Shown here piece by piece: positions 14,255 to 59,285 of a stretch of DNA of 64,000 nt. The stretch is taken from the sequence record OZ346219.1. One strand, written 5' to 3'. The stretch comes from a phage. The notes under the pieces were generated by a model. That model made no database searches, had not been told where the DNA came from, and was given only the letters and a program-made list of their open reading frames with translations. Numbering within the stretch: the first letter of the stretch is position 1; each line of letters starts with the position of its first letter. Both the position numbers and the translations under genes were made by a program.

Positions 14255-14292
14255 TTGATTCTCCTTAAAGTGTATTTCGTTTCGATGGGGGT

Positions 14293-14540: not shown

Positions 14541-14573
14541 TTTGATTCTCCTTTGTTTCGTTTCGATGGGAGT

Positions 14574-14602
14574 ATCTTACTACCCCCGTTATTCAGTGTC
14601 AA
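14574..14602 (-). promoter_or_regulatory. early-type promoter cassette
   Basis: TTGACA, 17 bp, TAAGAT; imperfect GGGGGTAGTAAGATACTCCC element. Confidence 0.5.
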
Positions 14603-14609
14603 CTACTTT

Positions 14610-14828: not shown

Positions 14829-14852
14829 ATGTTCCTCCGTTTCGATGTGCGT

Positions 14853-14881
14853 ATTATGCTATGGCAAGATCAGATTGTCAA
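14853..14881 (-). promoter_or_regulatory. early-type promoter cassette
   Basis: TTGACA, 17 bp, CATAAT. Confidence 0.5.
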
Positions 14882-14889
14882 CACCCAAT

Positions 14890-14918
14890 AACAAAAAAGT
14901 CGCCACTATGGGCGACTT
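14890..14918 (-). terminator. intrinsic terminator after HAD-like gene
   Basis: Minus-strand AGTCGCCcatagtGGCGACT followed by TTTTTTG. Confidence 0.55.
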
Positions 14919-14928
14919 TGAACAAACA

Positions 14929-15405
14929 TTAATCATGACCGTGATTTGCAATATCCGCTCGCGTCTTATCTTTGTGATTTCCTACGTCAAAGACACGATA
15001 ACCATTTTCACGCAAAACTTTAATCACTTCTGGGTTATCCTCAAAGACTCCGACAACTTCATCTTTATCAAAGGATTTAATTACCTCTAATTTGATGTGA
15101 TAATCTTTACGGGAATCGGTACGGCCTCTCATAAAGATTTTATCAAAACACACCCCGTTAGAAATTAACCAATCAATTGTTTCCATGTAAGCATGTGAAC
15201 TTCGTCCGGTGAGGATGTAAATCAAATGCCCGTTGTCGGAAAGAGCATTGATAACACGGATTACATCGTAAATGGGGGAATCTCCCCCACATGCCTTGTT
15301 ATATTCGATCCATGACTCGACTTTATCAAGATTTTCGGTTGGCATCTTTGCTAGTCGATGCGTTGGATCTGTGATCGTAAAATCTAAATCGACAAAATAT
15401 ATCAT
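14929..15405 (-). CDS. HAD-superfamily phosphatase-like protein
   Basis: N-terminal FVDLDFTIT (DxDxT) motif; 158 aa; 4-nt overlap with nrdB stop. Confidence 0.55.
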   Translation of the reverse strand: MIYFVDLDFTITDPTHRLAKMPTENLDKVESWIEYNKACGGDSPIYDVIRVINALSDNGHLIYILTGRSSHAYMETIDWLISNGVCFDKIFMRGRTDSRKDYHIKLEVIKSFDKDEVVGVFEDNPEVIKVLRENGYRVFDVGNHKDKTRADIANHGHD

Positions 15406-21979: not shown

Positions 21980-22007
21980 ATTATACACTATTGCGTTACG
22001 CTGTCAA
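21980..22007 (-). promoter_or_regulatory. early-type promoter cassette
   Basis: TTGACA, 16 bp, TATAAT. Confidence 0.5.
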
Positions 22008-23299: not shown

Positions 23300-24274
23300 T
23301 TACATCCCTAACAGAGCGTCAAGATCATCCAGATCAGAAGCGGAGGAAGTACCGCCACCCAGGTCCAGAGATGCCATCAGATCATCAGCGGAAGAATCTA
23401 ACGCCGTGCTAGCTGCGTTAATACCAACTACAGTGCTAGCTGCGGTAGTACCAGCGTCGAATGCATTCATCTGTGCGTCAAAATCATCAAGCTGGCTGTT
23501 AATCGCTGCCGCAGCACTGGAAGCCGCCGCACCAGCTACCATAGAAACGCCCATAGTTTTCTTAAATTTGGTTTCCAGTTCATCGAACGGTTTAAACTGG
23601 CTAGGCGCTACAATCTCACTCAGATCAACCATGTTTTCCATCAGATATTTCTGATATGCTTCGTCTTCAATTTTCGGAAGCTGTGATTGCTGCATGAAAC
23701 GAGAATCGTCATAGTTCTGGTGTTTATCAACCTTCTTAGCTTTCAGGAGGAAGTTAGCACCGGAGAACACACAAGTTACATCTACCGGAACTTCGCCCAT
23801 GTCGGTATTCACGTTCACCATTGCAACGATCTTATCATAAATTTTCTGACCGAAGCGGAATTTGAATACCTTACCTTCATTTTCTGGTGCTTGAGGATCT
23901 TTCAGTACCAGAATATTTGCGTAGTAAGAGGCTTTACGCTTAATCAGTTGCCATTCTGTTTTATCGGTATTGTACAGGTCTTTTTCGTTAATATATTTGC
24001 ACACAGGGCAAGAATCAAAATCACCGTGGGTGCTTGAGCAGTTTTCCCAATACCATTTACCATTAACTTTGAAGGAATGGTTTACCAGTTTCACAATCGG
24101 CAGACCGTCTTCTGTCTTAGACGGCAGGAAGCGAATCAGGGCTTCACCGTTACCTGCTGCATCAGTCTTAATCTTCCACTCTTTCGGATCTTCTTTGGAG
24201 AAACCGTTGCCACCTTTCAGTGCGGCCAGTTGAGCTTGCAGTTTGGAAGAATCTTGACGACGAAACATGTTCAT
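23300..24274 (-). CDS. 32: single-stranded DNA-binding protein
   Basis: Strong match to T4 gp32 ([11 protein letters not shown]..., zinc site [12 protein letters not shown], acidic C-terminus); start may be Met3. Confidence 0.95.
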
Positions 24275-24334
24275 AATTATACCTCTTTATACATTAACTA
24301 TTGATTAATTTACGTTTTATACTATATCAGATAC

Positions 24335-24931
24335 TTAATTGCTTGTCAATACTTTATCAATTATATCTAACAGTTTTGGCTTTCTATTTTCAAATTCTAA
24401 CATCTCTTCGGGAGAAATGTCAACTACTTCTGTTTTGTTGAAAAAGTTTGGGTCTATAGCATCAGCAACAAAGTTTCTCGCAAGTGCTGCCGCTTTCTCA
24501 TGGACATATATTCCCAAATATATCAACTTCTTTCTTTCGACCTGAATATTGGCAACATATTTACCATCTCGTTTATAAAGACTAACACCGATATATTCAG
24601 ACGATCGACCTTTCTGTTTACCCATATTTCTTGAGTTTTGTTGCTCGTTCGCATCTCTCAAGTTTTCAATCCGATTATCTGTTATAATTCGGTTAACATG
24701 GTCAACGTATTTTGGCATGTATCCATGATGCATAAAGAAAATTATTCTATGCTCTTTATGATGTTTACCATCGATACACACCAATCTGTATCCATGACTA
24801 GGATTAACTCCACCCGCTCTAGATCCGACTTTATGCTTTCGGTTTGTCGATATCTTGCGAATCAGCTTACCGTTATCATATTTAAAGAGTTCATGACAAC
24901 GAGCATACAATTCAGGATCATATGTTTTCAC
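24335..24931 (-). CDS. free-standing HNH homing endonuclease with AP2-like DNA-binding domain
   Basis: HRIIFFMHHGYMPKYVDHVNRIITDNRIENLR (HNH) followed by SEYIGVSLYKRDGKYVANIQ (AP2-like); inserted between genes 32 and 59. Confidence 0.75.
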   Translation of the reverse strand: MKTYDPELYARCHELFKYDNGKLIRKISTNRKHKVGSRAGGVNPSHGYRLVCIDGKHHKEHRIIFFMHHGYMPKYVDHVNRIITDNRIENLRDANEQQNSRNMGKQKGRSSEYIGVSLYKRDGKYVANIQVERKKLIYLGIYVHEKAAALARNFVADAIDPNFFNKTEVVDISPEEMLEFENRKPKLLDIIDKVLTSN

Positions 24932-25595
24932 CTTTTAACCTCGATATTTCTTTACACTCTTTAACTACTTTAACAAATAATGCTCTTGCTTTTGCGGCGT
25001 CAATAACAAGTAGTTTCTTGTACGCCTTCATTTTAACACTATAAGTTTGCCAAATCAAGTCTTTGGCTACCTTGTCGTGTTCGTCGATTATATTTAGAAA
25101 GCTATCTAACAACATAAACGACTCAAACGATATAATCCGATTTTGCAGTAGTTTAAAGATACCGCTAGTTTCGGTTGCGGGATTGTATGTAATTAGCTCT
25201 TTAAGAGTAACCCCGCGTTTCTCGGAGAAGTATACCAGACTTTTAATGTCATCGTCAAATCGTGTTGCTGCATCGGTTATCTTTCCTATGTATTCCATAT
25301 AAAAGCCGTATGCGTCAACATCAGTGATTTCACCTACCCATGCATCGGTATTAGCTACCAGATTGCTTAGGAATAGGAAGTATAATTCTCTTAGATTGTA
25401 CTTTTCCGCTAATTTCGCGAAATAATACTTATCTCTGCGTTTATTGAATGCGGCATCAGATAACCGCATCCTCCAATTGTATTTTACGCAATCATAACGC
25501 CCGTTCATATGAGCTTTCATCATGCAATATAACATATACACAGATTTAGCATTAATTCGCATATCTGGATCTGGAGGAAGACGGTTTCTGATCAT
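24918..25595 (-). CDS. 59: helicase loader (T4 gp59-like)
   Basis: KSVYMLYCMMKAHMNGRYDCVKYNWRMRLSDAAFNKRRDKYYF closely matches T4 gp59. Confidence 0.9.
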   Translation of the reverse strand: MIRNRLPPDPDMRINAKSVYMLYCMMKAHMNGRYDCVKYNWRMRLSDAAFNKRRDKYYFAKLAEKYNLRELYFLFLSNLVANTDAWVGEITDVDAYGFYMEYIGKITDAATRFDDDIKSLVYFSEKRGVTLKELITYNPATETSGIFKLLQNRIISFESFMLLDSFLNIIDEHDKVAKDLIWQTYSVKMKAYKKLLVIDAAKARALFVKVVKECKEISRLKGENI

Positions 25596-34627: not shown

Positions 34628-37564
34628 ATGGCAGATTTAAACAGAATCCAATTTAAACGTACTAGCACGAAAGGTCGTAAACCTGATGCTACTACAATGA
34701 CGCAAGGTGAACTTGCTATCAACCTGCATGATTATTATTTGTTTACAAAAAATGACTCTGGTTCTATTATTAACTTAAGCTGTCCTCCGATCTATGACCG
34801 CGATGTTATCATGGCTGGTAAAGTAAAGGGAGATTATTACATTTTAGGTAAAACCGCCAATTATCTTGAAGATCAGACAGCGAGAGACCTTAACCGTTTT
34901 GGGGCATTCCGTACCAACGGTCTAGATGGATTTTTAGATTTGACCTTGCATGTTCCTCATTCTGGTGGCGTTCAACATGGTCGAGGATTTACTTTCAATT
35001 ATGGACACACAGGACCGCGCGTAGAAACTTATGGATATAATGCACAGGGACAAAAAGCATTTAGTTATAAAATGTATCACGAAGGTGATAAACCAACTCC
35101 AGGAGAATTGAACGTCTATAGCAAACAAGAAGTAGATAGAATGTTTGTTAAGAACGTTAAACTTTCTACAGGTTCTGGTGATATCGTTGAAGGTTATTTT
35201 AAATTAGCGACTGCGATGATTCCACAAGACGGTCGTAGTGTATTTTTTCGTATTCATGGTGGTAACGGATATAACGTTACTGCATACGATCAAGTTGATA
35301 TTGTAGAAATTGTTATTCGCAGTGGAAATAATCGTCCTAAAGGTGTTAACGTTATTGCATACCGCCGAAATACAAACAAAGCATTTGATGTTTTGGCTGT
35401 TAATACTTCTGGTGATAACTATGATATCTACGTGAAATATCAGCGTTGCACTGATAACGTTATTGTTGAATTTGGTAAAAGTGTTGATGTTAATCTGGTA
35501 GTTCATGACGTTCCAGACTTTGTTGTTGATCGTCCTGTTGGCGATAATGTTATTGGCGGTCGCGCGGTAACTCTTTTCAACACCGAAAACAAACGAGGTG
35601 TGTTGAGTTTTGACGATAACACACAAAATAGTTATGATATTGTTCACTTGAGTAATGATAAGGGTACTGGACGAAAATATATTCGTAAATTCCGTAGTAA
35701 CTATAATGAAACGATCTGGCATGAGACGGTTCAAGGTAACGTATATCGTTTAGCTACTGGAACTACCGACGCAAACGAAGTTCTCAAAATTACCGACCGC
35801 ACGTTGCAAACTGGCAATGCTGTTTTTGATGGTGGTAATAATAATGTTCGTTTACATCGTAAAACCGGAAAAAGTAACTATCTGGAATATTATGATGCCC
35901 GTAACGGAGCAAATAAACGTCAGGGATATATTGGCTATGGTGATGCCACAACTAACCAGTTGTCAATTATTAACGAACTCTCCGAAGGTAATAACTCGAT
36001 TTTCTTTAACGAGACAGGTCAAATTTCACTTAACGTAGGAAAGACAAAAATTGTTCATAGCAACGGACAATATATTTCTACTAACGCCGATAACTATCGT
36101 ATAATTTATGGTAATTATGGAACATTCTGGCGAAATGATAGCGTTAAACTTTATCTCATGTCCACTGCCGAAAATGATAAATGGGGTACTTGGAATAGCT
36201 ATCGACCATTCATTTACAACCTAACCAACGGCGATGTTCAATTGGGTGGTGATGCCAATACAACCGTATTGACCTTAGAAGCAGCAAGCAAAATCTCAAG
36301 ATTTGGTGGTTCTGTTTATAGCGGTGGCGATTTTTATAATAAAGGCCAGTATATCATAATGGAAGCTGGGCGCGCTGGATCTCGCGATTATATTCGATTT
36401 AATCATTGGGGTGATAGTAATAATGCCCGTGATAACGTTTTGTACATAGAAGATAGTCAAGGCCGACATTTTAGCACAGAACGTGCGATGGGTACTGGTG
36501 CTCTTAAAGCATACTTCTTAGGCGATCTTGAAGTCGGTGGTAAGTTTACTTGGGGTAAAAATACAGCTACATCTAGCTTTAATATTCGTGCATGGGGTAA
36601 TGATTCCCGTAAACAAGTATTAGAATGCGCGGATGAAAGTGGGTGGCATTGGTACACACAACGAACGGGCGGTCCTGATACTTCTGCAATTGATTTTGCC
36701 ATCAATGGTACTGTTAGGCCTCAAGCAATTCACACTGGCGGTAATATCACGCTTAACGGTGCTGATATTGAATTTAAACGAAGCGGTAACAAGCATTTAT
36801 GGTTTAGAGATCCGAACGGCTTAGAGTTGGGTCTGTTGTACTGCGATGATGCTGGTGTTATGCGTATTCGTGGGGAGAAATCGACCGAAGTATGGAAATT
36901 CTCAGCAAAACAGATTCATCTGGAAACTGGTACTGCCGGAAATGGTGTAGGCTTGCTTCGTGGTGCTGTAGGTGGTGGCGCATGGACTCAATGGCGAGAT
37001 CGTGGCACTGGCTTGCAGGTTGATTGTCAGCAATCTGAAAACTCAGCGCATAACGTATGGAGAGCTACGCATCAAGGAAAATACCACATCGCGGCAATGG
37101 GTGTACACGTTCCTGGTGGTACTATCGGAAATGCTATGGTGCGTATTCACGTACACGATGCAACTTTTGACTTTAGCGCAACTGGTGATTTCCAAGCAGG
37201 TCGTAACGGTAATTTTAACGATGTGTACATTCGTTCTGATGCTCGCCTGAAAATCAATAAGGAAGAGTATAAAGAGAATGCTACCGATAAAGTTAATCGC
37301 TTGACGGTATACACCTATGACAAGGTTAAATCTTTAACTGACCGTACTGTCATTGCTCATGAAGTTGGTATTATTGCTCAGGATCTTGAGAAAGAATTGC
37401 CAGAAGCAGTAAAAACCTCGAAGATCGGCGACGGTGATACACCAGAAGAGATCTTAACAATTTCTAACTCTGCTGTCAACGCTCTTTTAATTAAGGCGTT
37501 TCAGGAAATGAGTGAAGAACTTAAAGCCGTTAAAGCTGAACTAGCGGAACTTAAAAAGAATTAA
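34628..37564 (+). CDS. 37: long tail fibre distal subunit with C-terminal intramolecular chaperone (peptidase S74-like) domain
   Basis: 978 aa; C-terminal SDARLKINKEEYKENATDKVNRLTVYTYDKVK...AHEVGIIAQDLEKELPEAV is characteristic of self-cleaving tail-fibre chaperone domains. Confidence 0.8.
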   Translation: MADLNRIQFKRTSTKGRKPDATTMTQGELAINLHDYYLFTKNDSGSIINLSCPPIYDRDVIMAGKVKGDYYILGKTANYLEDQTARDLNRFGAFRTNGLDGFLDLTLHVPHSGGVQHGRGFTFNYGHTGPRVETYGYNAQGQKAFSYKMYHEGDKPTPGELNVYSKQEVDRMFVKNVKLSTGSGDIVEGYFKLATAMIPQDGRSVFFRIHGGNGYNVTAYDQVDIVEIVIRSGNNRPKGVNVIAYRRNTNKAFDVLAVNTSGDNYDIYVKYQRCTDNVIVEFGKSVDVNLVVHDVPDFVVDRPVGDNVIGGRAVTLFNTENKRGVLSFDDNTQNSYDIVHLSNDKGTGRKYIRKFRSNYNETIWHETVQGNVYRLATGTTDANEVLKITDRTLQTGNAVFDGGNNNVRLHRKTGKSNYLEYYDARNGANKRQGYIGYGDATTNQLSIINELSEGNNSIFFNETGQISLNVGKTKIVHSNGQYISTNADNYRIIYGNYGTFWRNDSVKLYLMSTAENDKWGTWNSYRPFIYNLTNGDVQLGGDANTTVLTLEAASKISRFGGSVYSGGDFYNKGQYIIMEAGRAGSRDYIRFNHWGDSNNARDNVLYIEDSQGRHFSTERAMGTGALKAYFLGDLEVGGKFTWGKNTATSSFNIRAWGNDSRKQVLECADESGWHWYTQRTGGPDTSAIDFAINGTVRPQAIHTGGNITLNGADIEFKRSGNKHLWFRDPNGLELGLLYCDDAGVMRIRGEKSTEVWKFSAKQIHLETGTAGNGVGLLRGAVGGGAWTQWRDRGTGLQVDCQQSENSAHNVWRATHQGKYHIAAMGVHVPGGTIGNAMVRIHVHDATFDFSATGDFQAGRNGNFNDVYIRSDARLKINKEEYKENATDKVNRLTVYTYDKVKSLTDRTVIAHEVGIIAQDLEKELPEAVKTSKIGDGDTPEEILTISNSAVNALLIKAFQEMSEELKAVKAELAELKKN

Positions 37565-37598
37565 GGAAACTCCCAGGGAAGGGAACTACTAAGGAGAA

Positions 37599-37844
37599 AT
37601 GGCTATGGTCTATAATATCGTCATTGGTGCTTTATCTAATTTCGGAATGAAATTATTGTCAAAGTTAATTAGTGAAAAGATGCTCACTAAAATTTTCTTC
37701 TATTGCGCTCGTCGTCTTGCGGCTTATACCAATACACCAATTGACGATCGTTTTGTGGAAGAACTTTATAAGGAGTTTAATAAAGACCAGTCAGAAGATA
37801 GTAACGAGCAAGATAAACCTAGTGATAGTCAACTACCTAAATAA
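37599..37844 (+). CDS. hypothetical small protein (81 aa) in the position of gene 38
   Basis: ORF between gene 37 and t; hydrophobic N-terminus, acidic C-terminus. Confidence 0.35.
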   Translation: MAMVYNIVIGALSNFGMKLLSKLISEKMLTKIFFYCARRLAAYTNTPIDDRFVEELYKEFNKDQSEDSNEQDKPSDSQLPK

Positions 37845-37877
37845 GAGTACACTGTCATAGTTATCTTAGGGCATTAT

Positions 37878-38534
37878 ATGCAAGTTTCTGAAAAAGGGAA
37901 AGACTTTGCTATCTCAAATGTCCTGCGCGCTATTTTCACAACTAAAAGCACGGAGTTGCTCGTACTTCGTGTTTTTGCTGCCGTCGTGTTGTCCATATTG
38001 GCATTTGTCGTTTATAGTAAAAACGAGTTATTTGCGCTTTATAAAGAGACTCGTTATGAGACTTATGCTCACATTCTCCAGGTAGAGAAAGACCGCAATT
38101 TTGATAATGCAGCACAGGAGCAGTTACAGATAGTTCATGTGTCGGCTGATGCCGATTTTTCTGCTGTTTTTAGTTTTCGTCCGAAAAACCTAAACTATTT
38201 TGTTGATTTGGTGGCATATGAAGGAAAGCTACCACACACAATCGATGAAAAAAATTTAGGCGGATTCCCTATCAATAAAACGAGTGAAGAATATCGTAGG
38301 CATCTTTTAGGTAAATCATATTTTACCGATAAAGATTTCCAGTATATTCCATCAAGAGAAAAGAAATTAGAGAATATCGATATAGGTTTCATGTATTCTT
38401 GTCCTATATTCAATCTCGATAATGTCTATTCTGGTAGTATCGCCATTTCATGGAAGAATAAACCGGATATTGACATTGAGAATTTAGATACTCTTTGCAA
38501 TCAATCTGCCAGAATCCTCGGAAGGATTAGATAA
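37878..38534 (+). CDS. t: holin
   Basis: 218 aa; FSFRPKNLNYFVDLVAYEGKLP and MYSCPIFNLDNVYSG match T4 holin T. Confidence 0.9.
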   Translation: MQVSEKGKDFAISNVLRAIFTTKSTELLVLRVFAAVVLSILAFVVYSKNELFALYKETRYETYAHILQVEKDRNFDNAAQEQLQIVHVSADADFSAVFSFRPKNLNYFVDLVAYEGKLPHTIDEKNLGGFPINKTSEEYRRHLLGKSYFTDKDFQYIPSREKKLENIDIGFMYSCPIFNLDNVYSGSIAISWKNKPDIDIENLDTLCNQSARILGRIR

Positions 38535-38540
38535 CTTAAA

Positions 38541-38570
38541 GGGGAAGCCTTTCGGCCTCCCCTTCTTTTT
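38541..38570 (+). terminator. intrinsic terminator after holin t (possibly bidirectional)
   Basis: GGGGAAGCC-tttc-GGCCTCCCC followed by TTCTTTTT; the convergent minus-strand gene ends at 38569. Confidence 0.6.
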
Positions 38571-38817
38571 ATTGGCGCATAGACGCGCCTGAATCGCATT
38601 TTGACGCTGTATGATGAAAACAGGTAGCGTACCAGTCATCGGCTTGTTTGTCTTCGTCAGAAAACGCGTAATTGCGTTGTATGCCGTTTTCTACTTTGAC
38701 CAGTGCAATAGCTGTTTCTGGAAGATCAATCAATCGAACAAAATCACCATCTTCCCACTCTACACGAGCAATATCATAGCCCATCTCAAAGTATACAATC
38801 GCTTGTTCTAATTTCAT
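38569..38817 (-). CDS. hypothetical protein (82 aa), possible DUF2829-like fold
   Basis: N-terminus MKLEQAIVYFEMGYDIARVEWEDG loosely follows the EAL..lK.G..v.R..W pattern; weak. Confidence 0.35.
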   Translation of the reverse strand: MKLEQAIVYFEMGYDIARVEWEDGDFVRLIDLPETAIALVKVENGIQRNYAFSDEDKQADDWYATCFHHTASKCDSGASMRQ

Positions 38818-39143
38818 TCTGGAAACTTCCCGTAAACATTCTCTGCCAGCTTACGTGCATCTTTTACAATATCTTTCATGTAATGACTATAATTTTTAGC
38901 TAGATCAATTATGCAATCAACAAAGAAGTAATAGCGTCGCAGTGCTACCAGCTCAACATCTTCAAGATGACCATTTTCTCCAATCGCTGAAATATGTTTA
39001 AATTCCTTTCGGATCGCGTCCATCGCTACATTAACTTCTTTTATAATATCTTTCGTATTATATGCACCTCGACTAATCAAAATTTTGGTTAGGTCTTCTG
39101 CTTTTTCGTGAAAGTTGTCAATTTCAAACTCGATCATAATCAC
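38814..39143 (-). CDS. hypothetical protein (109 aa), tandem paralog
   Basis: Shares C-terminal ...AENVYGKF with 39252-39584 (...TENIFGKF). Confidence 0.45.
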   Translation of the reverse strand: MIMIEFEIDNFHEKAEDLTKILISRGAYNTKDIIKEVNVAMDAIRKEFKHISAIGENGHLEDVELVALRRYYFFVDCIIDLAKNYSHYMKDIVKDARKLAENVYGKFPE

Positions 39144-39251
39144 CTCTCATAATTTCACGCTGTTGTTTCAACATTTTTTCGTGGTTTGCTAATTCTATAC
39201 CTTGTAATAGCATAACCAGTGCAATTTTCAATGATTCATCATCTTTCATAA

Positions 39252-39584
39252 TCAAAATTTACCGAAAATATTCTCTGTCATAATTCTTGCTTCGTCGATT
39301 ATTTTCGTCATGTTCATGGTGTAGTTATGATCATTTAGTGCCTTAATGACAACGAGCAAGGAATCTAAAAACACTCGATACCGGGTATATTCTACGCTAT
39401 TTGTGAATACCGATGTTTTCTCTACTTTATCGATCAGATAGCCTAAAGCCGATAGCGCCTCGTTTACTTCCCTTGTTACTTTATCGGCGCTAAACAACAC
39501 CGGATAAAGACGCGGTGTGATTAACCGCGCTGCCTCTTTCAATTCGGTCGCTTTCCATGATTCATATTTGTCATAGTTAAACAT
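39252..39584 (-). CDS. hypothetical protein (110 aa), tandem paralog
   Basis: Paralog of 38814-39143. Confidence 0.45.
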   Translation of the reverse strand: MFNYDKYESWKATELKEAARLITPRLYPVLFSADKVTREVNEALSALGYLIDKVEKTSVFTNSVEYTRYRVFLDSLLVVIKALNDHNYTMNMTKIIDEARIMTENIFGKF

Positions 39585-39596
39585 TGTATAATCTCC

Positions 39597-39929
39597 TTAC
39601 AGATGAAAACCTGTTACGATCACCGCATCGATCATACCGCTAGGAATAAACGGTTCGCCCTCTTTTATTTCAACTTTGAATTGATGCCATTTCGCTAATA
39701 CTTCTTCCGGTACACCCAGCGATTCGGCGTCTGCTTTAGTTTCATCCATAATCCAACTAGGCTGCATGAGAGCATAGTTTACATAGTCCATTTCTGGGGT
39801 CATGTCATCAATGTTAATATATTTGCAGTTGACGCGTTTCAGAATTTCAAATTCTTTATTGTCAACCTGTACCATGTATAATTCAGTAGTTTCTGGAATC
39901 AGTTCCCACACAATCAGTACATTTTTCAT
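39597..39929 (-). CDS. hypothetical protein (110 aa)
   Basis: ORF in minus-strand array. Confidence 0.4.
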   Translation of the reverse strand: MKNVLIVWELIPETTELYMVQVDNKEFEILKRVNCKYINIDDMTPEMDYVNYALMQPSWIMDETKADAESLGVPEEVLAKWHQFKVEIKEGEPFIPSGMIDAVIVTGFHL

Positions 39930-39937
39930 AGTTCACC

Positions 39938-40306
39938 TCACTTAACAAAGATTTTCTTTAATGCTTTCAGGATCGTTGCTTCCGGCGCTTCTTCCGGTGG
40001 AGGAAGCAATTCTACCACTTCCTCTTCCAACTCGATATAGTCTACCAGATATTCTACATAGAATGCAAGTGCTTCCATGAAATTAGATGCTACATCCGAT
40101 TCACCACACGCGCCCACATGCATTGTATAAACATCACTGCGATCAAGTTTGTGGATACTGCCTAGATAGTTTCGGTTATACCAGACTTCCCACACTTTCA
40201 ACTTTCCGGTTTTGGTTGCTGTTTTATAATCGGTTTCGTAATGATGCAATTGACGTTGCAAATCATTGATAATAACACATTTTTCGTAATTGCTTTGAAT
40301 TTCCAT
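39938..40306 (-). CDS. hypothetical protein (122 aa)
   Basis: ORF in minus-strand array. Confidence 0.4.
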   Translation of the reverse strand: MEIQSNYEKCVIINDLQRQLHHYETDYKTATKTGKLKVWEVWYNRNYLGSIHKLDRSDVYTMHVGACGESDVASNFMEALAFYVEYLVDYIELEEEVVELLPPPEEAPEATILKALKKIFVK

Positions 40307-40316
40307 GATGTAATCC

Positions 40317-40508
40317 TCACTTATCGTTAAGAAGTTCTAAAACTTTCTGTCGTACTTTGTCGATATTAGTTGATTCAAAAACTGTACGGTATCCCCAGCT
40401 TTGACCGTATGAGCGGTTGCAATCTCCATATCCCCATTGTTCAACCTGATAATATTCAAGGAATGGGTGCTGCCGAACTATGATACCATCTCTATTAAAA
40501 ATTACCAT
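40317..40508 (-). CDS. hypothetical protein (63 aa)
   Basis: ORF in minus-strand array. Confidence 0.3.
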   Translation of the reverse strand: MVIFNRDGIIVRQHPFLEYYQVEQWGYGDCNRSYGQSWGYRTVFESTNIDKVRQKVLELLNDK

Positions 40509-40530
40509 AATATGATCCTCAAGTCAAAAC

Positions 40531-40812
40531 TTATCTTCGGTTGTACTTCTGCCACTTTCGGTAATACTGCTTGTAAACCTGTCTTGCGTTTTCACCATCT
40601 TTACTATACATGTTATCTACCATCAAGTCAATAAGACCTTCCGGTGTCTGGTAGTTCCCCGCTCGGATAAGTTCTTTAATTAAAGTGTCCTGATGATCTT
40701 TGTATACCACGTTAATGATGGTCTTTTCTGCTTTCTTCGTCCCGATCATCCGGTGGTTAGCTTTCATCGCATCCCACCAATCTTTTGTGATCTTCATGTT
40801 ATTGAATTGCAT
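40531..40812 (-). CDS. hypothetical protein (93 aa)
   Basis: ORF in minus-strand array. Confidence 0.4.
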   Translation of the reverse strand: MQFNNMKITKDWWDAMKANHRMIGTKKAEKTIINVVYKDHQDTLIKELIRAGNYQTPEGLIDLMVDNMYSKDGENARQVYKQYYRKWQKYNRR

Positions 40813-40823
40813 AATTTAACCTC

Positions 40824-41582
40824 TTACTTGCAAACGTATTGATCTACATCAATTGCGCCACCGAATGTAGGATGACGTTTTTCAAATCGAATAGTTCCGT
40901 CGTTTGGTTCGAAAACGGAGTATTCATATAGATCTTTCTTACCAACATTCTTATAAAACCCGCCTTTAGTCATAACGGTTTCTTGTACGTTTGCTTTGTG
41001 TACGTTGTATTCATCAATGTATACAAAATCAACCATCTTCCCATTTTTAATGGTTACTTTAAGATCTCCTGGTTGATTTCCATATTTGGCATACAGTGGC
41101 GCTTCTTTAATTTTTGTGGAAATTCCATCTTTCATACTCCACTCATAACGAACGGTGCATTGATAGGTAAAAGTTTCGACCTTCGGTTCTTCTACCACTT
41201 TTGCTTCCTGTTTCGGTTGTTCTTCTTCAACCTTCGCAGAAGTCTCTGAATCGCTTTCTGACGCGGTTTCTTCTTTAGGTAATACATTCATCAAGTTTTG
41301 GATTTGAGCGTTGTATACAGCCTCCAGTGGCTGAATCTGCCCGATATTGATCATTGTGTCACGAACAGTTTTATTCCAGTTTCGTTGCTCTTGTTTCAGA
41401 GACGGATCAATCTTAACAGCCTTAACATACACCTCATGAAGTTTAGAGTCCAGTGCGGAGATAGACTCATTAGCACAAATAAACTTCTCTGATTTGGTAG
41501 TAGCTTTAGCGCAATCAAAGGACGCAGCGTTAGCACCGAAAGCAGTAGCAGAAAGAACGATAGCAGCGATAATGTTTTTCAT
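40824..41582 (-). CDS. secreted protein with LprI/DUF1311-like N-terminal domain
   Basis: Signal peptide MKNIIAAIVLSATAFGANA; then CAKATTKSEKFICANESISALDSKLHEVY...QRNWNKTVR; E/K-rich linker; C-terminal domain ends in Cys. Confidence 0.5.
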   Translation of the reverse strand: MKNIIAAIVLSATAFGANAASFDCAKATTKSEKFICANESISALDSKLHEVYVKAVKIDPSLKQEQRNWNKTVRDTMINIGQIQPLEAVYNAQIQNLMNVLPKEETASESDSETSAKVEEEQPKQEAKVVEEPKVETFTYQCTVRYEWSMKDGISTKIKEAPLYAKYGNQPGDLKVTIKNGKMVDFVYIDEYNVHKANVQETVMTKGGFYKNVGKKDLYEYSVFEPNDGTIRFEKRHPTFGGAIDVDQYVCK

Positions 41583-41616
41583 AATATATTCCTCAGTGTT
41601 TTGTCTTGATGGGAGT

Positions 41617-41645
41617 ATCTTACTACTCCCTTAATCCGGTGTCAA
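41617..41645 (-). promoter_or_regulatory. early-type promoter cassette with palindrome across the -10
   Basis: TTGACA, 17 bp, TAAGAT; GGGAGTAgtaagaTACTCCC, identical core to 4460 and 14067. Confidence 0.55.
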
Positions 41646-41652
41646 CTACTTT

Positions 41653-41808
41653 TTAAATTTCTTCTACAGTAAAGTCTTCAATGTTGTTGTGCTCGGAGAA
41701 CGTTGCCAGACCAGCATTCCATGCATCATCCTCAGAGAAGAATACACCGTAACGTTCATATCCTTTAGCGCCTTCAAATTTAACCATTAATTTGTGAGTA
41801 TGTTTCAT
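41653..41808 (-). CDS. small hypothetical protein (about 51 aa)
   Basis: Start trimmed to Met30 downstream of promoter cassette 41840-41868. Confidence 0.3.
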   Translation of the reverse strand: MKHTHKLMVKFEGAKGYERYGVFFSEDDAWNAGLATFSEHNNIEDFTVEEI

Positions 41809-41839
41809 TTTGATTCTCCTTCGTTGTCTTGATGAGTTT

Positions 41840-41868
41840 AGTATAGGGGATCGCCGATCCCCTGTCAA
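41840..41868 (-). promoter_or_regulatory. early-type promoter cassette with spacer palindrome
   Basis: TTGACA, spacer GGGGATCGGCGATCCCC, TATACT. Confidence 0.55.
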
Positions 41869-41882
41869 CCAGTTTTTAGAAA

Positions 41883-42143
41883 TTATTTTCGCCATTCACC
41901 TGAAACAATGAAGTTTGTAAAGTGATTGTGGTCCGTGATAATGTCATTAAGTACCATATGCGGATATGCTTTAGTGTAATCACGTTTACGATCAGTCATC
42001 CAACCAACGAAAGTCGGTGCAAAGTACGGCACACCGTCAGACGATGCCATATTAAACCCTTTGTCAGCCATAAATGCAGCCGCCCTAAGATTTTTAATTG
42101 AAGTAGTGCGACTAATTTCAAAAACTTTATCGGTAAAATTCAT
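41883..42143 (-). CDS. hypothetical protein (about 86 aa)
   Basis: Start trimmed to Met8. Confidence 0.35.
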   Translation of the reverse strand: MNFTDKVFEISRTTSIKNLRAAAFMADKGFNMASSDGVPYFAPTFVGWMTDRKRDYTKAYPHMVLNDIITDHNHFTNFIVSGEWRK

Positions 42144-42144
42144 T

Positions 42145-42354
42145 TTAAGCCCCCGCTCGTGCATTAATACGCATTTTCTGCATAGCCATGATCTGGCTTA
42201 CTGCTTCTTCTTTACGTTCTTGCGTGATAACGTGACCAGATTCCGCAAACTCTCCCGCAACTTCTTCTACAATCTCGCGAACTTGAGAACGTCCAAAGAT
42301 GCGGTTTCCTTCGTAGCTCATAAATTCAGTCACTACTTGCTCAATAGATTTCAT
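42145..42354 (-). CDS. hypothetical protein (69 aa)
   Basis: ORF behind promoter cassette 42387-42415. Confidence 0.35.
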   Translation of the reverse strand: MKSIEQVVTEFMSYEGNRIFGRSQVREIVEEVAGEFAESGHVITQERKEEAVSQIMAMQKMRINARAGA

Positions 42355-42386
42355 GTGATTCCCCTTCTTTCGTTTGGTATGGGAGT

Positions 42387-42415
42387 ATATTACTACTCCC
42401 GTTTCTTTACGTCAA
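42387..42415 (-). promoter_or_regulatory. early-type promoter cassette with palindrome across the -10
   Basis: TTGACG, 17 bp, TAATAT; GGGAGTAgtaataTACTCCC. Confidence 0.55.
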
Positions 42416-42422
42416 CTCGTTT

Positions 42423-42665
42423 TTAGAAATTTTTCGCTTCTTCTTCGGTCATCATAACCGCGCATTCGTGCATAACTTTGAAAACCGGATCAATCATGTC
42501 GAATGCTTCGCGGGACAGTTTACGAGAAGCGATTTTGATTGCTTCTACGTCTTCTACTACAGGAACAAAAACAGTTTTCAGTTCGTCGAGGACGGCAGCT
42601 TCTTTTTCATTCAGGAAGATCCCAGCGTCGTACAGTGCAACTTCGATAACATTAACTTTAACCAT
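42423..42665 (-). CDS. hypothetical protein (about 80 aa)
   Basis: Start trimmed to Met22 downstream of promoter cassette 42700-42728. Confidence 0.35.
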   Translation of the reverse strand: MVKVNVIEVALYDAGIFLNEKEAAVLDELKTVFVPVVEDVEAIKIASRKLSREAFDMIDPVFKVMHECAVMMTEEEAKNF

Positions 42666-42699
42666 TTTTATTTCCTCCAGTTCGTTTCGGTATGGGAGT

Positions 42700-42728
42700 A
42701 TAATACTACCGATGACCTTTGGCGTCAA
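42700..42728 (-). promoter_or_regulatory. early-type promoter cassette
   Basis: TTGACG, 17 bp, TATTAT. Confidence 0.45.
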
Positions 42729-42930
42729 CTAGTTTTTTGTTATTTTCGTGAAATTTTTTCGTCGCCTCATGTGCTTTTCGCTGGGCTTCTTGTTGTGCTT
42801 GCTGGCGTGCTGCCTCTTGCGATGCCATAACAGACGCATTTGCAGCAGTTACAGCCGCGACCATCGCTGCGGTATTAGCATTTACCGTACATGCACTAGC
42901 CAGCAAAGCAATCGCAATCATTTTCTTCAT
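42706..42930 (-). CDS. small secreted protein (74 aa)
   Basis: N-terminal signal peptide MKKMIAIALLASACTVNA; Q/A-rich helical remainder. Confidence 0.4.
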   Translation of the reverse strand: MKKMIAIALLASACTVNANTAAMVAAVTAANASVMASQEAARQQAQQEAQRKAHEATKKFHENNKKLVDAKGHR

Positions 42931-43097
42931 AGTTTCCCCTTTAGGTTATCTTCGACCTTCACCCATTCCGCGTATTCTTGCGCGGCTACTTTCGGATTTA
43001 GGCCATCTTCGTACATTGCATCAAGTAATTCTTTGTCGGTTGGCTTATACCCTAGATAAGCCTCCACCTGATTTTTCCAAATTTTATACCAGTTCAT
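42927..43097 (-). CDS. small hypothetical protein (about 56 aa)
   Basis: Start trimmed to Met24 to remove overlap with upstream ORF. Confidence 0.3.
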   Translation of the reverse strand: MNWYKIWKNQVEAYLGYKPTDKELLDAMYEDGLNPKVAAQEYAEWVKVEDNLKGKL

Positions 43098-43101
43098 ATT
43101 A

Positions 43102-43374
43102 TCACCAATCAAGAGCGCGTGTCCCTGCGTCTTCCCATGCTTGATCCATAACAGCCTTGAAAACATATTCTAGAGTATCATCTTTAGAGAATCCGAAGAC
43201 TTTAGACGGAATATCTTCGATTGCTACTCCCGCAACTTCTGCATTACGCGCTTGGCAATAATGCAACTCTAAGTTATCGAGATAGCGACCGCCTAATTTC
43301 TCCATATCATCCCAGCATTTCCAGTAACCTACTTTATCTGCAATTGCCAACACTTTGCTGTTTTCGTTGTTCAT
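43102..43374 (-). CDS. hypothetical protein (about 90 aa)
   Basis: Start trimmed to Met22 downstream of promoter cassette 43406-43434. Confidence 0.35.
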   Translation of the reverse strand: MNNENSKVLAIADKVGYWKCWDDMEKLGGRYLDNLELHYCQARNAEVAGVAIEDIPSKVFGFSKDDTLEYVFKAVMDQAWEDAGTRALDW

Positions 43375-43405
43375 CTTTGATTCTCCTTTTGTTTGGTATG
43401 GGTGT

Positions 43406-43434
43406 ATTATGCAATGTTGGATTCTGTAAGTCAA
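43406..43434 (-). promoter_or_regulatory. early-type promoter cassette
   Basis: TTGACT, 17 bp, CATAAT; directly downstream of terminator 43450-43476. Confidence 0.5.
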
Positions 43435-43449
43435 CAACTTTTTAAAATA

Positions 43450-43476
43450 AAAAAGCCGACCACACGGATCGGCTTA
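43450..43476 (-). terminator. intrinsic terminator after ORF 43485-43880
   Basis: Minus-strand hairpin AGCCGATCCGTGTGGTCGGCT followed by TTTTTTATTTT; same hairpin as the plus-strand terminator at 32875. Confidence 0.55.
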
Positions 43477-43484
43477 ATAATCAG

Positions 43485-43880
43485 TTACTTACTAAATTTC
43501 TTTTTGGCTTCGTCTACTGCATGAGATGCCAGCACCGCTGCCGCATGTGCACTTTTATCTGTGTTGCATAGAACACCCAGATAAACATCACGCCAAAGTT
43601 TAATCATCTCGTAGATCATATCAATATCATTTTCTTGTTTGTTGGCGATACTATTCGTCGTTATCTGGTAAGGCAACGGCTTGATCTGTACTGGTTCCGC
43701 CATCGGGCTAATCGGTTTAGGATCAGTCATAATAGGTGCTGTTGTTGGTGGTGTTTTCCATACGCCATTATTCCACGGTTTAATCGTTGTATCGTAAAGT
43801 TTATAAGGATTTTTGTCTGGGTCAACCATCCATGCATGATGAGTACCCAAACCATTTGAAGTAATGCGTCGTTCAGTCAT
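43485..43880 (-). CDS. hypothetical protein (131 aa)
   Basis: ORF downstream of gene 52. Confidence 0.4.
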   Translation of the reverse strand: MTERRITSNGLGTHHAWMVDPDKNPYKLYDTTIKPWNNGVWKTPPTTAPIMTDPKPISPMAEPVQIKPLPYQITTNSIANKQENDIDMIYEMIKLWRDVYLGVLCNTDKSAHAAAVLASHAVDEAKKKFSK

Positions 43881-44082
43881 ACTTTCCCTCCAAAAATTCT
43901 TTCATCAAATAGTCTATCGTTGCTCTGTGTTCTGGTGTGTTTGTTATCTCTGCTAACTTGTTCAGAGATTCAATAGTGATCCGGTTGGCTTCTTCCATAG
44001 TCTCAACGACCATCGGTACAATCTTTTTATTGTTGTACACGAAAGCCACATAACCGCCTTCTGGATATTCTTTCATAATCAA
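43873..44082 (-). CDS. hypothetical protein (69 aa)
   Basis: ORF overlapping gene 52 stop by 4 nt. Confidence 0.4.
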   Translation of the reverse strand: MIMKEYPEGGYVAFVYNNKKIVPMVVETMEEANRITIESLNKLAEITNTPEHRATIDYLMKEFLEGKYD

Positions 44083-45440
44083 CCCTTCTTAAGTTCTTTA
44101 AGATCTTTCTTATATTCCTTCATTGCGGTCGTCTTTGTCCAATACTCATATTCACTATGATGTTTATCGGCATCTTTGACCAGTCGATCATACTCTTCTT
44201 GAGTAACGCTATACAATGGCATAGAAACGAGCTTATCGGCATATGGGCGAAGTTTTTCATGTTCATTGATGGATTGCATTACCTCGGCCTTTTTCTTGCC
44301 CTGTAGCTCGATTTCGCCCTTAATTACGCGGTCTATAAATTCAGCTTTAGCCATTGCATAATTGTATGCTTCCAGTGTTTCCGCTTGCATCAATTCAATG
44401 CGTTTATCTACATAGCCTAATCGGATTTCGACGAATCGACGGATCAGATCGCTCGCTTTCTCGAATACTTCTACTAAACCACGTTCGTTAACTACTACGA
44501 TATTCTGGGCTACTAACTGCGTTAGTTTAAAATCCTTCATGATTTGCTCATGTCGAGCGGATTCATCTTCGCTTTTGAAATAATCGCGTTTCAGTGTTAC
44601 TTCAAATCTGAATCCGTCCTTAGAGCAACGGTCATTATACGATACAATCAGATCTTTTTCTTCCAGTGCATCCAGTACCGCTACATATTCTTCACGGTCG
44701 AACTTATAAGGAACTTCTGATATTGTCAGCTTAGTCTTGCCGTTTAGTTCATATGTACCCTCAAGAATCACACCATCGCGGTCATCACGAGGGATAACTT
44801 TACCCGTGAATTTCGGGAATTGAACACTAGGTTCTTTATCCAGTTTTCCGGCAAGTGCTAGCTCTGTGCATTCAATAAGGCTTTCCAGTGAATGCGGTAA
44901 AATGTCAGTTTTATACCCTGTAGCAATACCACTAATACCATTAGCCAATACCATTGGCACAACTGGCAAGTAGAACGCTGGCGGGATGTGTTCCAGATCT
45001 TCGTGCTTAGGTGCGCAATTCATATCTTTATAGATTTTAAAGAAGTTTTCATGCACACGAGCAAAGATATAACGTGCTGCACCTGCTTTCTGGACTAAAC
45101 GAGATCCGAAGTTACCTTGACCGTCAAGCAGTGGAGTATTATTGCTCCATGTATTCGCCATGAGTGATCCGGCTTCTACGGCATTAGTTTCCCCGTGGTG
45201 ATACCCCAACTCAGCAACACCAGATCCAATATCTGCCATCTTACGGAATTTCTTACGGTCGCCTTTACTCTTTTGAAGTGCGCACTCCATAACAAAGCGT
45301 TGTACTGGTTTAAGCCCATCTACCAATTGAGGAATCCCGCGTTCCTCGGCAGAATAGATCGCATATTCCTTAGCTTCATTATGTACAATGCTTTCAAGGC
45401 TGCGGTAAGTAACTGATTTATTCATCTTCACCTCATACAC
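44079..45440 (-). CDS. 52: DNA topoisomerase II medium subunit (GyrA-like)
   Basis: 453 aa; GyrA/ParC-like N-terminal region with active-site Tyr context; T4 position. Confidence 0.85.
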   Translation of the reverse strand: MYEVKMNKSVTYRSLESIVHNEAKEYAIYSAEERGIPQLVDGLKPVQRFVMECALQKSKGDRKKFRKMADIGSGVAELGYHHGETNAVEAGSLMANTWSNNTPLLDGQGNFGSRLVQKAGAARYIFARVHENFFKIYKDMNCAPKHEDLEHIPPAFYLPVVPMVLANGISGIATGYKTDILPHSLESLIECTELALAGKLDKEPSVQFPKFTGKVIPRDDRDGVILEGTYELNGKTKLTISEVPYKFDREEYVAVLDALEEKDLIVSYNDRCSKDGFRFEVTLKRDYFKSEDESARHEQIMKDFKLTQLVAQNIVVVNERGLVEVFEKASDLIRRFVEIRLGYVDKRIELMQAETLEAYNYAMAKAEFIDRVIKGEIELQGKKKAEVMQSINEHEKLRPYADKLVSMPLYSVTQEEYDRLVKDADKHHSEYEYWTKTTAMKEYKKDLKELKKG

Positions 45441-45795
45441 GCTTACAAATCACATTCTTTACTTTATCAGATTTATCCGCCCAATCCAATAGCCATTTTA
45501 ACGGAAGGATTGAAACAATAAACGGGGCAGCAATCAAAGCAAACATGATACACCTGATAATCAGGAAAACGCAAGTGACAAAACTAGCGATAGTGATCCC
45601 GACAAAACAAAATACCATAGAAAACAGAGTAATGATATAGAAAGGCCAGAATACCCACTCCCGCATCTTAACGCCTTTGTATTCTCTGAATTGCTTAAAA
45701 TCTACAAACAACTCTCGGATAGACGCGTACAGGACCGAAAAATCATCTTTCATTGCTCTGAATGAGCAATCTTCTATTTTAGAATGACCTAGCAT
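45433..45795 (-). CDS. integral membrane protein (120 aa)
   Basis: Two long hydrophobic segments (FWPFYIITLFSMVFCFVGITIASFVTCVFLII and FALIAAPFIVSILPL). Confidence 0.45.
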   Translation of the reverse strand: MLGHSKIEDCSFRAMKDDFSVLYASIRELFVDFKQFREYKGVKMREWVFWPFYIITLFSMVFCFVGITIASFVTCVFLIIRCIMFALIAAPFIVSILPLKWLLDWADKSDKVKNVICKRV

Positions 45796-58730: not shown

Positions 58731-59285
58731 TCACCTCTCTTTATATCGTGATGTTCTGGTCTGACTCTTCCATATTCTTCTTATGGTTATCGTGTGCACT
58801 CCGTATATTATAGCAAGTTCTTTTACAGACGCAACACCCTGTTTAGACCTGATCTCTTCTACTTGATGGTCAGTTAACTTTGCGTTTCCGTGTGTTTCTC
58901 CATAGTTTTTGTTCAATCCTTCTTCTTTAGCGTGTATAAGATTTTCTCTTTGTGTTGTCCACTCAAGGCCATACAGATCAAAATCCTTTTTATCACCAAA
59001 TTTGTGATTTACTACAGGGTAGTTGTTTGGATTTGGTATAAATGCTTCTGCTAATGCCCTATGAATATAAACGCCGACGGTCTTTGGCTTGCCCGACTTT
59101 GTTCTGTTGGCGTAATCTCTTATATTACAAGAGACATAACCTTTTGTTATTTTAGTTGATCTGACCTTGCCAGTGGCTTTATTTCTTAGTTTACCATAAG
59201 AACTAATTTCATATTCTGGATACGATACGCCCATATAAACAAGGTCTTTCCATTCTTCTGGATGTTCATCACAATACCGTTTCAT
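58731..59285 (-). CDS. free-standing HNH homing endonuclease
   Basis: YEISSYGKLRN (NUMOD4-like) then HNH-like core VGVYIHRALAEAF...NHKFGDKKDFDLYGLEWTTQRENL. Confidence 0.7.
   Translation of the reverse strand: MKRYCDEHPEEWKDLVYMGVSYPEYEISSYGKLRNKATGKVRSTKITKGYVSCNIRDYANRTKSGKPKTVGVYIHRALAEAFIPNPNNYPVVNHKFGDKKDFDLYGLEWTTQRENLIHAKEEGLNKNYGETHGNAKLTDHQVEEIRSKQGVASVKELAIIYGVHTITIRRIWKSQTRTSRYKER

Follow-up and report, generated by a model that had tools for sequence, protein, structure and literature searches.

The interval between t and gene 52

We analysed a window of 64,000 nucleotides (nt; 64 kb) from a phage genome (sequence record OZ346219.1), and within it the t-52 interval (38569-44082), which lies between the holin gene t and gene 52, the gene for the medium subunit of topoisomerase II. 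In the T4 record this interval holds asiA, asiA.1, arn, arn.1 to arn.4, motA and motA.1; an earlier note on the present DNA had correctly placed asiA, arn and motA there. Here the interval is occupied by 18 minus-strand open reading frames (ORFs) of 41-252 amino acids (aa) and by five promoter cassettes, and we could find no recognizable counterpart of MotA, AsiA or Arn among its genes. The same note had counted about 17 small ORFs, which agrees well with our 18 and with the 14-18 coding sequences (CDS) annotated at this place in related phages.

When positions 38569-44082 were used as a megablast query, 59 phage records matched at 93-98% nucleotide identity. In 47 of these the match extends over 80% or more of the query, and the best record accounts for 96% of the interval. 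The names of all 59 fall within the Escherichia/Shigella/Enterobacteria phage group, and every record whose taxonomy was read (RB49, kaaroe, FL15, SSG23, phiS and G2248) belongs to the Straboviridae, genus Krischvirus. The whole window is collinear with positions 115975-164018 and then 1-15760 of RB49, in blocks that are 92-99% identical. Because of this alignment and the exclusively Krischvirus taxonomy lines, the sequence identifies the window as part of an RB49-like (Krischvirus) T4-type coliphage. The 64 kb derive from the phage itself, and the remaining ~100 kb of its genome are represented in our searches by the complete RB49 genome (NC_005066).

The genes and hairpins of the interval and its flanks are as follows (PHROG matches as phrog numbers, with E-values where these were recorded):

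37878-38534, plus strand: holin gene t (left flank); Pfam Phage_holin_T 4.5e-61; 49% identity to T4 t
38538-38565, no strand assigned: 12-bp G/C-rich hairpin that fills the gap between the convergent t and ORF1
38569-38817, minus strand: ORF1, 82 aa; Tad2-like/DUF2829 domain; at the position of T4 asiA; phrog_1048 5e-19
38814-39137, minus strand: ORF2, 107 aa; phrog_9457 8e-57; paralogue of ORF4
39124-39249, minus strand: ORF3, 41 aa; equals RB49p256.1; phrog_17009 1e-32; annotated in RB49 and FL15
39252-39584, minus strand: ORF4, 110 aa; phrog_9457; paralogue of ORF2
39597-39929, minus strand: ORF5, 110 aa; phrog_4658; 99-100% identity in relatives
39938-40306, minus strand: ORF6, 122 aa; T4 arn.4 homologue; phrog_1594 8.8e-26
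40317-40508, minus strand: ORF7, 63 aa; phrog_6957
40531-40812, minus strand: ORF8, 93 aa; phrog_15915; allelic replacement
40824-41582, minus strand: ORF9, 252 aa; PF07007 LprI 1.4e-5; phrog_14799; heads the 3-kb unit from ORF9 to ORF1
41653-41808, minus strand: ORF10, 51 aa; phrog_19699; variable
41883-42143, minus strand: ORF11, 86 aa; phrog_19692; variable
42145-42354, minus strand: ORF12, 69 aa; phrog_14966
42423-42665, minus strand: ORF13, 80 aa; no PHROG or Pfam match; variable
42706-42930, minus strand: ORF14, 74 aa; signal peptide and A/Q/K-rich tail; no PHROG or Pfam family; variable
42927-43097, minus strand: ORF15, 56 aa; phrog_8655
43102-43374, minus strand: ORF16, 90 aa; phrog_7287
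43453-43475, minus strand: intrinsic-terminator-like hairpin with T-run
43485-43880, minus strand: ORF17, 131 aa; phrog_15644
43873-44076, minus strand: ORF18, 67 aa; phrog_15105
44079-45440, minus strand: gene 52, topoisomerase II medium subunit (right flank); Pfam DNA_topoisoIV 1.5e-69; 51% identity to T4 gp52

The ORFs tile the minus strand with gaps of 0-70 nt or with overlapping stop and start codons, and both GC and AT skew fit minus-strand coding uniformly across the interval. All but two (ORF13 and ORF14) have a PHROG family (1e-19 to 1e-156), and each of these families is listed as "unknown function". ORF2 and ORF4, which share phrog_9457, also find each other by BLASTP (1e-6). NCBIfam gave no match for ten ORFs of the interval, and Rfam at its gathering threshold gave nothing in 37500-45500.

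The hairpin between t and ORF1 folds with -23.2 kcal/mol (z = -4.98; none of 200 shuffled sequences was equally stable) and is likely a bidirectional terminator, as predicted from its sequence. The one at 43453-43475 is weaker (-12.5 kcal/mol, z = -2.8). The G2248 record annotates a terminator at the position equivalent to 38538-38565 and another in the gap equivalent to 43453-43475.

RB49 (NC_005066, RB49p255-p268) and phi1 (NC_009821) have the same flanks, strand and gene order in their t-52 intervals, and for 14 of our 18 ORFs the protein identity to RB49 is 85-100%. The resemblance to T4 is one of layout: there, too, small non-essential genes in minus-strand early orientation lie between the convergent t and 52. 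In gene content the two differ, since AsiA, MotA and Arn are missing here and only one of the 18 ORFs has a relative among the genes of the T4 interval.

Promoter cassettes and variable genes

A scan for sigma70-type promoters placed its five best sites on the minus strand of the interval, with -35 elements starting at 43434, 42728, 42415, 41868 and 41645. They match the consensus at 10-11 of 12 positions and have a spacer of 17 nt. Each site lies at the 3' end of one ORF, 25-35 nt before the next start codon. When aligned, the five share the order AAAAA-n-TAGTTGAC, a 17-nt spacer, TAnnAT and CCCATACC, followed by GGAG and ATG; that is, an A-tract, GTTGAC, 17 nt, TAnnAT, usually a G/C stem-loop, and a Shine-Dalgarno sequence. 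The number of strong sigma70-type cassettes on the minus strand is thus exactly the five ORFs "with their own promoter cassette" that the earlier note had described. We refer to them as PeSL 1 to 5, after the published promoter-early stem-loops (PeSLs):

41591-41660, minus strand: PeSL 1; TTGACA, 17 nt, TAAGAT; stem-loop GGGAGTA/TACTCCC over the -10; ahead of ORF9
41817-41884, minus strand: PeSL 2; TTGACA, 17 nt, TATACT; stem-loop GGGGATCG/CGATCCCC in the spacer; ahead of ORF10
42361-42431, minus strand: PeSL 3; TTGACG, 17 nt, TAATAT; stem-loop GGGAGTA/TACTCCC over the -10; ahead of ORF12 and ORF11
42674-42743, minus strand: PeSL 4; TTGACG, 17 nt, TATTAT; degraded stem; ahead of ORF13; overlaps the 3' end of ORF14
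43382-43448, minus strand: PeSL 5; TTGACT, 17 nt, CATAAT; no internal stem; ahead of ORF16, ORF15 and ORF14; directly downstream of the 43453-43475 hairpin

A G/C stem of 7-8 bp is clear in three of the five (those at 41645, 41868 and 42415). In PeSL 1 the stem-loop reaches -14.7 kcal/mol (z = -2.6). An nhmmer model built from the five cassettes (E 1.8e-13 for PeSL 1 and 2e-15 for PeSL 3) recovered about 18 more copies in the window (E-values between 1e-11 and 0.02), every one of them on the minus strand. The family thus comprises ~23 copies, which always stand on the coding strand and between ORFs. A further promoter-like site at 40631 was rejected as a PeSL; it lies inside ORF8 and lacks the flanks shared by the cassettes.

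The copies outside the interval cluster at 1148-6254 and at 14042-14883, with single ones at 17154, 22020, 23245, 50518 and 60503 (all minus strand). They mark other hyperplastic regions of the window.

PeSLs have been described as mobile regulatory cassettes (Arbiol et al. 2010; Comeau et al. 2014). RB49 and phi1 each carry about 50, which cluster ahead of ORFans in the hyperplastic regions, and the ORFans that differ between the two phages are PeSL-associated; reporter assays with other RB49/phi1 copies demonstrated both promoter and terminator activity, and PeSL mini-circles have been detected (Arbiol et al. 2010, PMC2839356). In their sequence features our five cassettes match these published elements. 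All five have an AT-rich tract, near-consensus -35 and -10 elements, the 17-nt spacer, and a Shine-Dalgarno sequence with a start codon. They share with the published PeSLs the AT-rich upstream tract, the arrangement of near-consensus TTGACA, 17 nt and TATAAT, the Shine-Dalgarno sequence and start downstream, the location upstream of ORFans in hyperplastic regions, and the association with insertions and deletions between close relatives; the Gn-loop-Cn stem between or over the boxes is clear in three of the five. They appear to differ from them in nothing essential, though two of the five copies have a degraded stem or none, and PeSL 5 is preceded by a separate terminator hairpin.

Variation among relatives was followed ORF by ORF in six phages, and the cassettes were counted over all 59 records. 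ORF1-7, ORF9, ORF12 and ORF15-18 are 85-100% identical in the six relatives; the one exception is SSG23, whose ORF2 allele is 48% identical. For ORF8 the identity is only 49-50% in five of them, RB49 included, and 76% in SSG23. ORF10, ORF11 and ORF13-14 occur in some of the phages and are missing from others, in differing combinations, and their distribution over the 59 records is as follows:

ORF10 cassette: held by 36 of 59 records
ORF11 cassette: held by 14 of 59 records
ORF13-14 cassette: held by 32 of 59 records, 28 of which cover at least 80% of the query

These variable genes coincide with those bracketed by the five PeSLs, and the alignment gap towards RB49 (window 41869-42940) begins at PeSL 2, the 41868 cassette. 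RB49 has ORF10, and therefore presumably also the cassettes that flank it. What sets the present phage apart from the six relatives is that it combines ORF10, ORF11 and ORF13-14; none of the six has all four variable ORFs (10, 11, 13 and 14) together. The description of the interval as a hyperplastic accessory region, put forward in the earlier note, is supported by these counts.

At the DNA level ORF11 is 98.4% identical to phi1 positions 158997-159250. A phi1-unique ORFan263.1 has been placed in a hyperplastic region (PMC2839356), and ORF11 probably corresponds to it, judging from position and not from a match to the phi1 annotation.

The last ~12 codons and the stop codon of ORF14 lie within PeSL 4 (42674-42743), and relatives match 81% of the ORF14 length. 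With its C-terminus encoded in the cassette, ORF14 would therefore be altered at that end by cassette recombination.

Searches for MotA, AsiA and Arn

The earlier note had claimed that the interval lacks motA and asiA, and had given as one reason that no ORF has the appropriate size. The second part is wrong. AsiA has 90 aa, and five ORFs are of that order (ORF13, 80 aa; ORF1, 82 aa; ORF11, 86 aa; ORF16, 90 aa; ORF8, 93 aa), while ORF9 with 252 aa comes near the 211 aa of MotA. Since AsiA- and MotA-sized ORFs exist, the absence has to rest on tests of homology, and all of these uphold it.

Pfam searches at E<=0.1 found neither AsiA (PF09010) nor the N-terminal activation domain (MotA_activ, PF09114) or the C-terminal double-wing DNA-binding domain (MotCF, PF09158) of MotA, nor DM_Arn (PF22134), in any of the 18 ORFs. 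The T4 proteins, run as controls, matched at 1e-42 (AsiA), 9e-62 and 2e-69 (the two MotA domains) and 8e-56 (Arn). In PHROGs, where T4 AsiA, MotA and Arn belong to phrog_1166, phrog_1345 and phrog_3151, none of the 18 ORFs matched any of the three families at E<=0.01 (T4 MotA control, 2e-98). When the proteins of the T4 interval were compared by tblastn with the 64-kb window and the complete RB49 genome, AsiA and MotA reached best E-values of only ~0.3, while the controls gp52 and t gave 1e-64 to 1e-146.

Hidden Markov models (HMMs) were also used. The MotA HMM was built from 31 family members with identities down to 33%, and a wide AsiA HMM from 32 members with identities down to 24%, which had been collected by an exhaustive hmmsearch of 1.84 billion representative proteins. 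Both were run against all six-frame ORFs of at least 25 aa from the window, RB49 and a T4 control locus, the kind of profile search that the earlier note had proposed. The MotA HMM found no convincing match in the window or RB49 (best non-control E 0.0025; T4 control 1e-95). The AsiA HMMs gave best E-values of 0.3 (narrow) and 0.07 (wide) in the window and RB49, against 1.7e-50 and 2e-35 for the T4 controls. Profile-profile comparison by hhalign assigned each of the 18 ORFs a probability below 5% against the MotA and AsiA profiles (below 1% for AsiA), with controls at 99.9-100%. By sequence, then, the t-52 interval has no detectable homologue of MotA, AsiA or Arn, and none of MotA or AsiA can be detected in the 64-kb window or the complete RB49 genome.

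Two weak matches were inspected and dismissed. RB49p058 (NC_005066 36982-38160; 392 aa, frd.2-like, outside the window) is the sole non-control match of the MotA HMM below E 0.01 (15 bits, E 0.0025). We judged it spurious; the match is confined to MotA positions 56-123, i.e. the end of the N-terminal domain and the charged linker, the protein contains three internal repeats, and the record names the gene frd.2, not motA. ORF14 scored a BLASTP E-value of 4.5e-4 in a 15-sequence database, which reflects its A/Q/K-rich low-complexity sequence aligned with the linker (hhalign, 1.2%).

A search for Mot-box middle promoters, likewise proposed in the earlier note, returned chance frequencies. The pattern TGCTTnA, 11-13 nt, TAnnnT, uncalibrated on the whole T4 genome, occurs 5 times in the window (2.8 +/- 1.5 expected) and 5 times in the RB49 genome (8.1 +/- 3.1 expected). 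The RB49 record names no gene asiA or motA, and its only regulatory features are "early" and "late" promoters. Only two temporally controlled promoter classes are reportedly found in RB49.

The absence of motA and of middle promoters in RB49 had been published before (Desplats et al. 2002; Nolan et al. 2006), as had hyperplastic regions driven by PeSLs (Arbiol et al. 2010). For RB49, and likewise for RB43 and Aeh1, neither a motA orthologue nor a consensus for middle promoters could be found (Nolan et al. 2006, PMC1524935, who cite Desplats et al. 2002). AsiA orthologues are listed there only for RB69, 44RR, Aeh1 and KVP40. The present phage resembles RB43, Aeh1 and KVP40, which have no motA orthologue or Mot-box consensus and keep early and late classes (PMC1524935). 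Unlike Aeh1 and KVP40, which encode AsiA, the RB49 lineage is without both MotA and AsiA.

One gene does connect the interval with that of T4. ORF6 (39938-40306) matches phrog_1594 (8.8e-26), and so does T4 arn.4 when extended from stop to stop (1.1e-53); the two proteins align by BLASTP at 3e-9, WEVWYNRNYLGSI against WDIWYHGAYLGTI. This agrees with the note in the record of RB49p259, "similar to T4 12.8 kD protein in AsiA-MotA region". According to these comparisons arn.4 is the sole gene family common to the T4 and Krischvirus t-52 intervals, and because they have ORF6/arn.4 in common, the two loci can be regarded as positionally homologous.

The T4 RefSeq arn.4 CDS (68 aa; NC_000866, stretch L001 5628-5960, minus strand) looks 5'-truncated. 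Upstream of it lie 42 in-frame codons, and the extended ORF spans the full length of phrog_1594 and aligns with ORF6. The extension contains no ATG, GTG or TTG; a GAGG is followed by ATA ATA AAC AAG TTA GAA ATT. T4 arn.4 may thus have a non-canonical start, or its N-terminus may be decaying.

Predicted transcriptional organization and candidate accessory functions

We consider it highly probable that the interval is an early accessory block, cut by PeSLs and terminators into six units, in which PeSL-exchanged cassettes come and go, and that it belongs to a lineage without sigma appropriation (see also PMC4122927). It would be the Krischvirus version of the T4 t-52 hyperplastic region, with 18 small and mostly uncharacterised accessory genes. 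Host sigma70 RNA polymerase would initiate at each PeSL early in infection. The predicted units, in the direction of transcription, are:

Unit 1: gene 52, ORF18 and ORF17, stopping at the hairpin 43475-43453
Unit 2: PeSL 5, then ORF16, ORF15 and ORF14
Unit 3: PeSL 4, then ORF13
Unit 4: PeSL 3, then ORF12 and ORF11
Unit 5: PeSL 2, then ORF10
Unit 6: PeSL 1, then ORF9 through ORF1, stopping at the bidirectional hairpin shared with t

Read-through from upstream would be attenuated by the PeSL stem-loops, and the hairpin 38538-38565 would insulate the block from the convergent late gene t. Since the PeSL copies have ~70 bp in common, they may recombine with each other and so insert, delete or swap the ORFs between them. 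The polymorphism of ORF10, ORF11 and ORF13-14 would arise because such recombination moves bracketed ORFs. With no MotA or AsiA in the lineage there would be no "middle" mode based on sigma appropriation; the transcriptional programme would then consist of two classes, early sigma70 promoters and late gp55-dependent ones, with the motifs of the two being sigma70-like and TATAAATA. Of this picture, the sequence itself shows which genes are present, the PeSL family, the pattern of polymorphism, and that neither homologues of MotA, AsiA and Arn nor an excess of Mot-boxes can be detected; that the promoters and terminators are active, that recombination moves the cassettes and that timing follows two classes we infer or take from the literature. 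The suggestion in the earlier note of a different early-to-middle transcription strategy gains support from the lack of motA and asiA in the window and RB49 and from Mot-boxes at chance level.

Several points weigh against this interpretation. The stem of PeSL 4 (42728) is degraded and PeSL 5 (43434) has none, its only hairpin being the separate one 5 nt upstream. The total of promoter-pattern matches does not exceed that in shuffled sequences (19 observed, 23.8 expected). Sequence methods could miss a structurally analogous, non-homologous binder of sigma70 region 4 among the uncharacterised ORFs, and the absence of MotA and AsiA beyond the 64 kb is judged from RB49 and not from the phage itself.

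The promoter-pattern total would fit the view that AT-rich DNA has produced the promoter-like cassettes by chance and that many of the small ORFs are not genes at all; two of them, ORF13 and ORF14, belong to no PHROG or Pfam family, and ORF3 has just 41 aa. We regard this as the least probable of the alternatives. Although the promoter strings are not enriched, the cassettes are a real repeat family, since nhmmer recovers the ~18 further copies; all ~23 stand on the coding strand between ORFs, and promoter and terminator activity of PeSLs from RB49/phi1 is experimental (PMC2839356). The ORFs, for their part, match PHROG families in 16 of 18 cases (1e-19 to 1e-156), tile the minus strand with gaps of 0-70 nt or overlapping stop and start codons, and show the skews of minus-strand coding throughout.

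It is also conceivable that motA and/or asiA reside outside the window in this isolate, for example through recombination with a Tequatrovirus; ~100 kb of the genome lie beyond it, and T4-type phages are mosaic and swap accessory genes. Yet neither gene occurs in complete RB49, which is collinear and 92-99% identical over the window, no RB49-like source name appears among the retrieved MotA and AsiA family members, and the T4 record has both genes in the t-52 interval, which is fully covered here. We give this possibility very little credence. Somewhat less improbable, if still very unlikely, is a non-homologous analogue of AsiA or MotA among the 18 ORFs that remodels sigma70 or RNA polymerase, so that the early-to-middle switch would be kept at its ancestral position. 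The five ORFs of AsiA size (80-93 aa) would be candidates by length, 16 of the 18 ORFs have no functional annotation, ORF1 to ORF9 are 97-100% conserved in the genus save for the ORF8 and ORF2 alleles, and Aeh1 and KVP40, which keep AsiA without MotA, tell us that the system can be rewired (PMC1524935). However, hhalign stays below 5% for all 18 ORFs against both profiles, Mot-box-type patterns are unenriched, the published searches of RB49 yielded no middle-promoter consensus or motA orthologue (PMC1524935), and ORF1 (Tad2-like) and ORF9 (secreted, LprI-like) have other domain assignments. A narrower version, to which we assign a slightly smaller chance, is that one of the genus-conserved, uncharacterised ORFs, with the ORF2/ORF4 pair and ORF5 as candidates, is a non-homologous modifier of RNA polymerase or sigma70 that replaces AsiA in the early sigma70 shut-off. 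If this were true, the ancestral asiA/motA locus of RB49-type phages would provide a cryptic switch from early to delayed-early transcription.

As a discovery the accessory block carries little weight, being that of one more Krischvirus isolate whose key facts were described between 2002 and 2010. Its value lies in a fully parsed, PeSL-delimited cassette polymorphism (14, 32 and 36 of 59 genomes), in arn.4 as the only family kept at the locus between T4 and Krischvirus, and in two candidate accessory functions that can be tested cheaply, a Tad2-like, possibly anti-defence protein and a secreted LprI-like protein.

These two, ORF1 and ORF9, are the only ORFs with domain hints. ORF1, at the position of T4 asiA, has a domain resembling Tad2 (Thoeris anti-defence 2, DUF2829); it matches PF11195 with 27.9 bits (cut-off, 25 bits; E 3.4e-6) over profile positions 1-71 of 73, and is 98-100% identical in the six relatives. 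Going by this domain, it may be an anti-defence sponge. A Foldseek search against the PDB returned nothing for ORF1 at E<=0.001, and its AlphaFold2 (AF2) model is poor (predicted local distance difference test, pLDDT, 59.5). ORF9, which is conserved across the genus, has a signal peptide and an LprI-like helical N-terminal domain, which an acidic/lysine-rich linker joins to a beta-rich C-terminal domain, the secondary structure being that of a low-confidence AF2 model (pLDDT 56.4). The low pLDDT values are due to the small number of sequences available to AF2, 3 for ORF1 and 1 for ORF9. A sequence search of the PDB found no match for either protein. By analogy with T4 Spackle, one might speculate that ORF9 is a periplasmic lysozyme inhibitor or a superinfection-exclusion factor.

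Elsewhere in the window we noticed several further differences from RB49. Between gene 32 and gene 59 lies a 198-aa homing-endonuclease-like ORF with HNH_3 and AP2 domains (24335-24931, minus strand); RB49 has no sequence that aligns with window 24273-24943. A 184-aa endonuclease-like ORF with a NUMOD4 motif (58731-59285, minus strand) adjoins the primase gene 61 and forms a ~550-bp insertion relative to RB49. A 394-aa ORF at 21996-23180 (minus strand) contains four tandem CapR-homology/treble-clef zinc-finger repeats and a MUG113-like C-terminal region; its DNA does not align with that of RB49p240, the corresponding gene in RB49, which is annotated as "endonuclease". Finally, ~620 bp (35760-36380, plus strand) of the distal tail-fibre gene (34628-37564) do not align with RB49. 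RB49 and phi1 are listed as diverging in gene 37, among others (Arbiol et al. 2010, PMC2839356), and the unaligned segment is probably a host-range swap in this gene.

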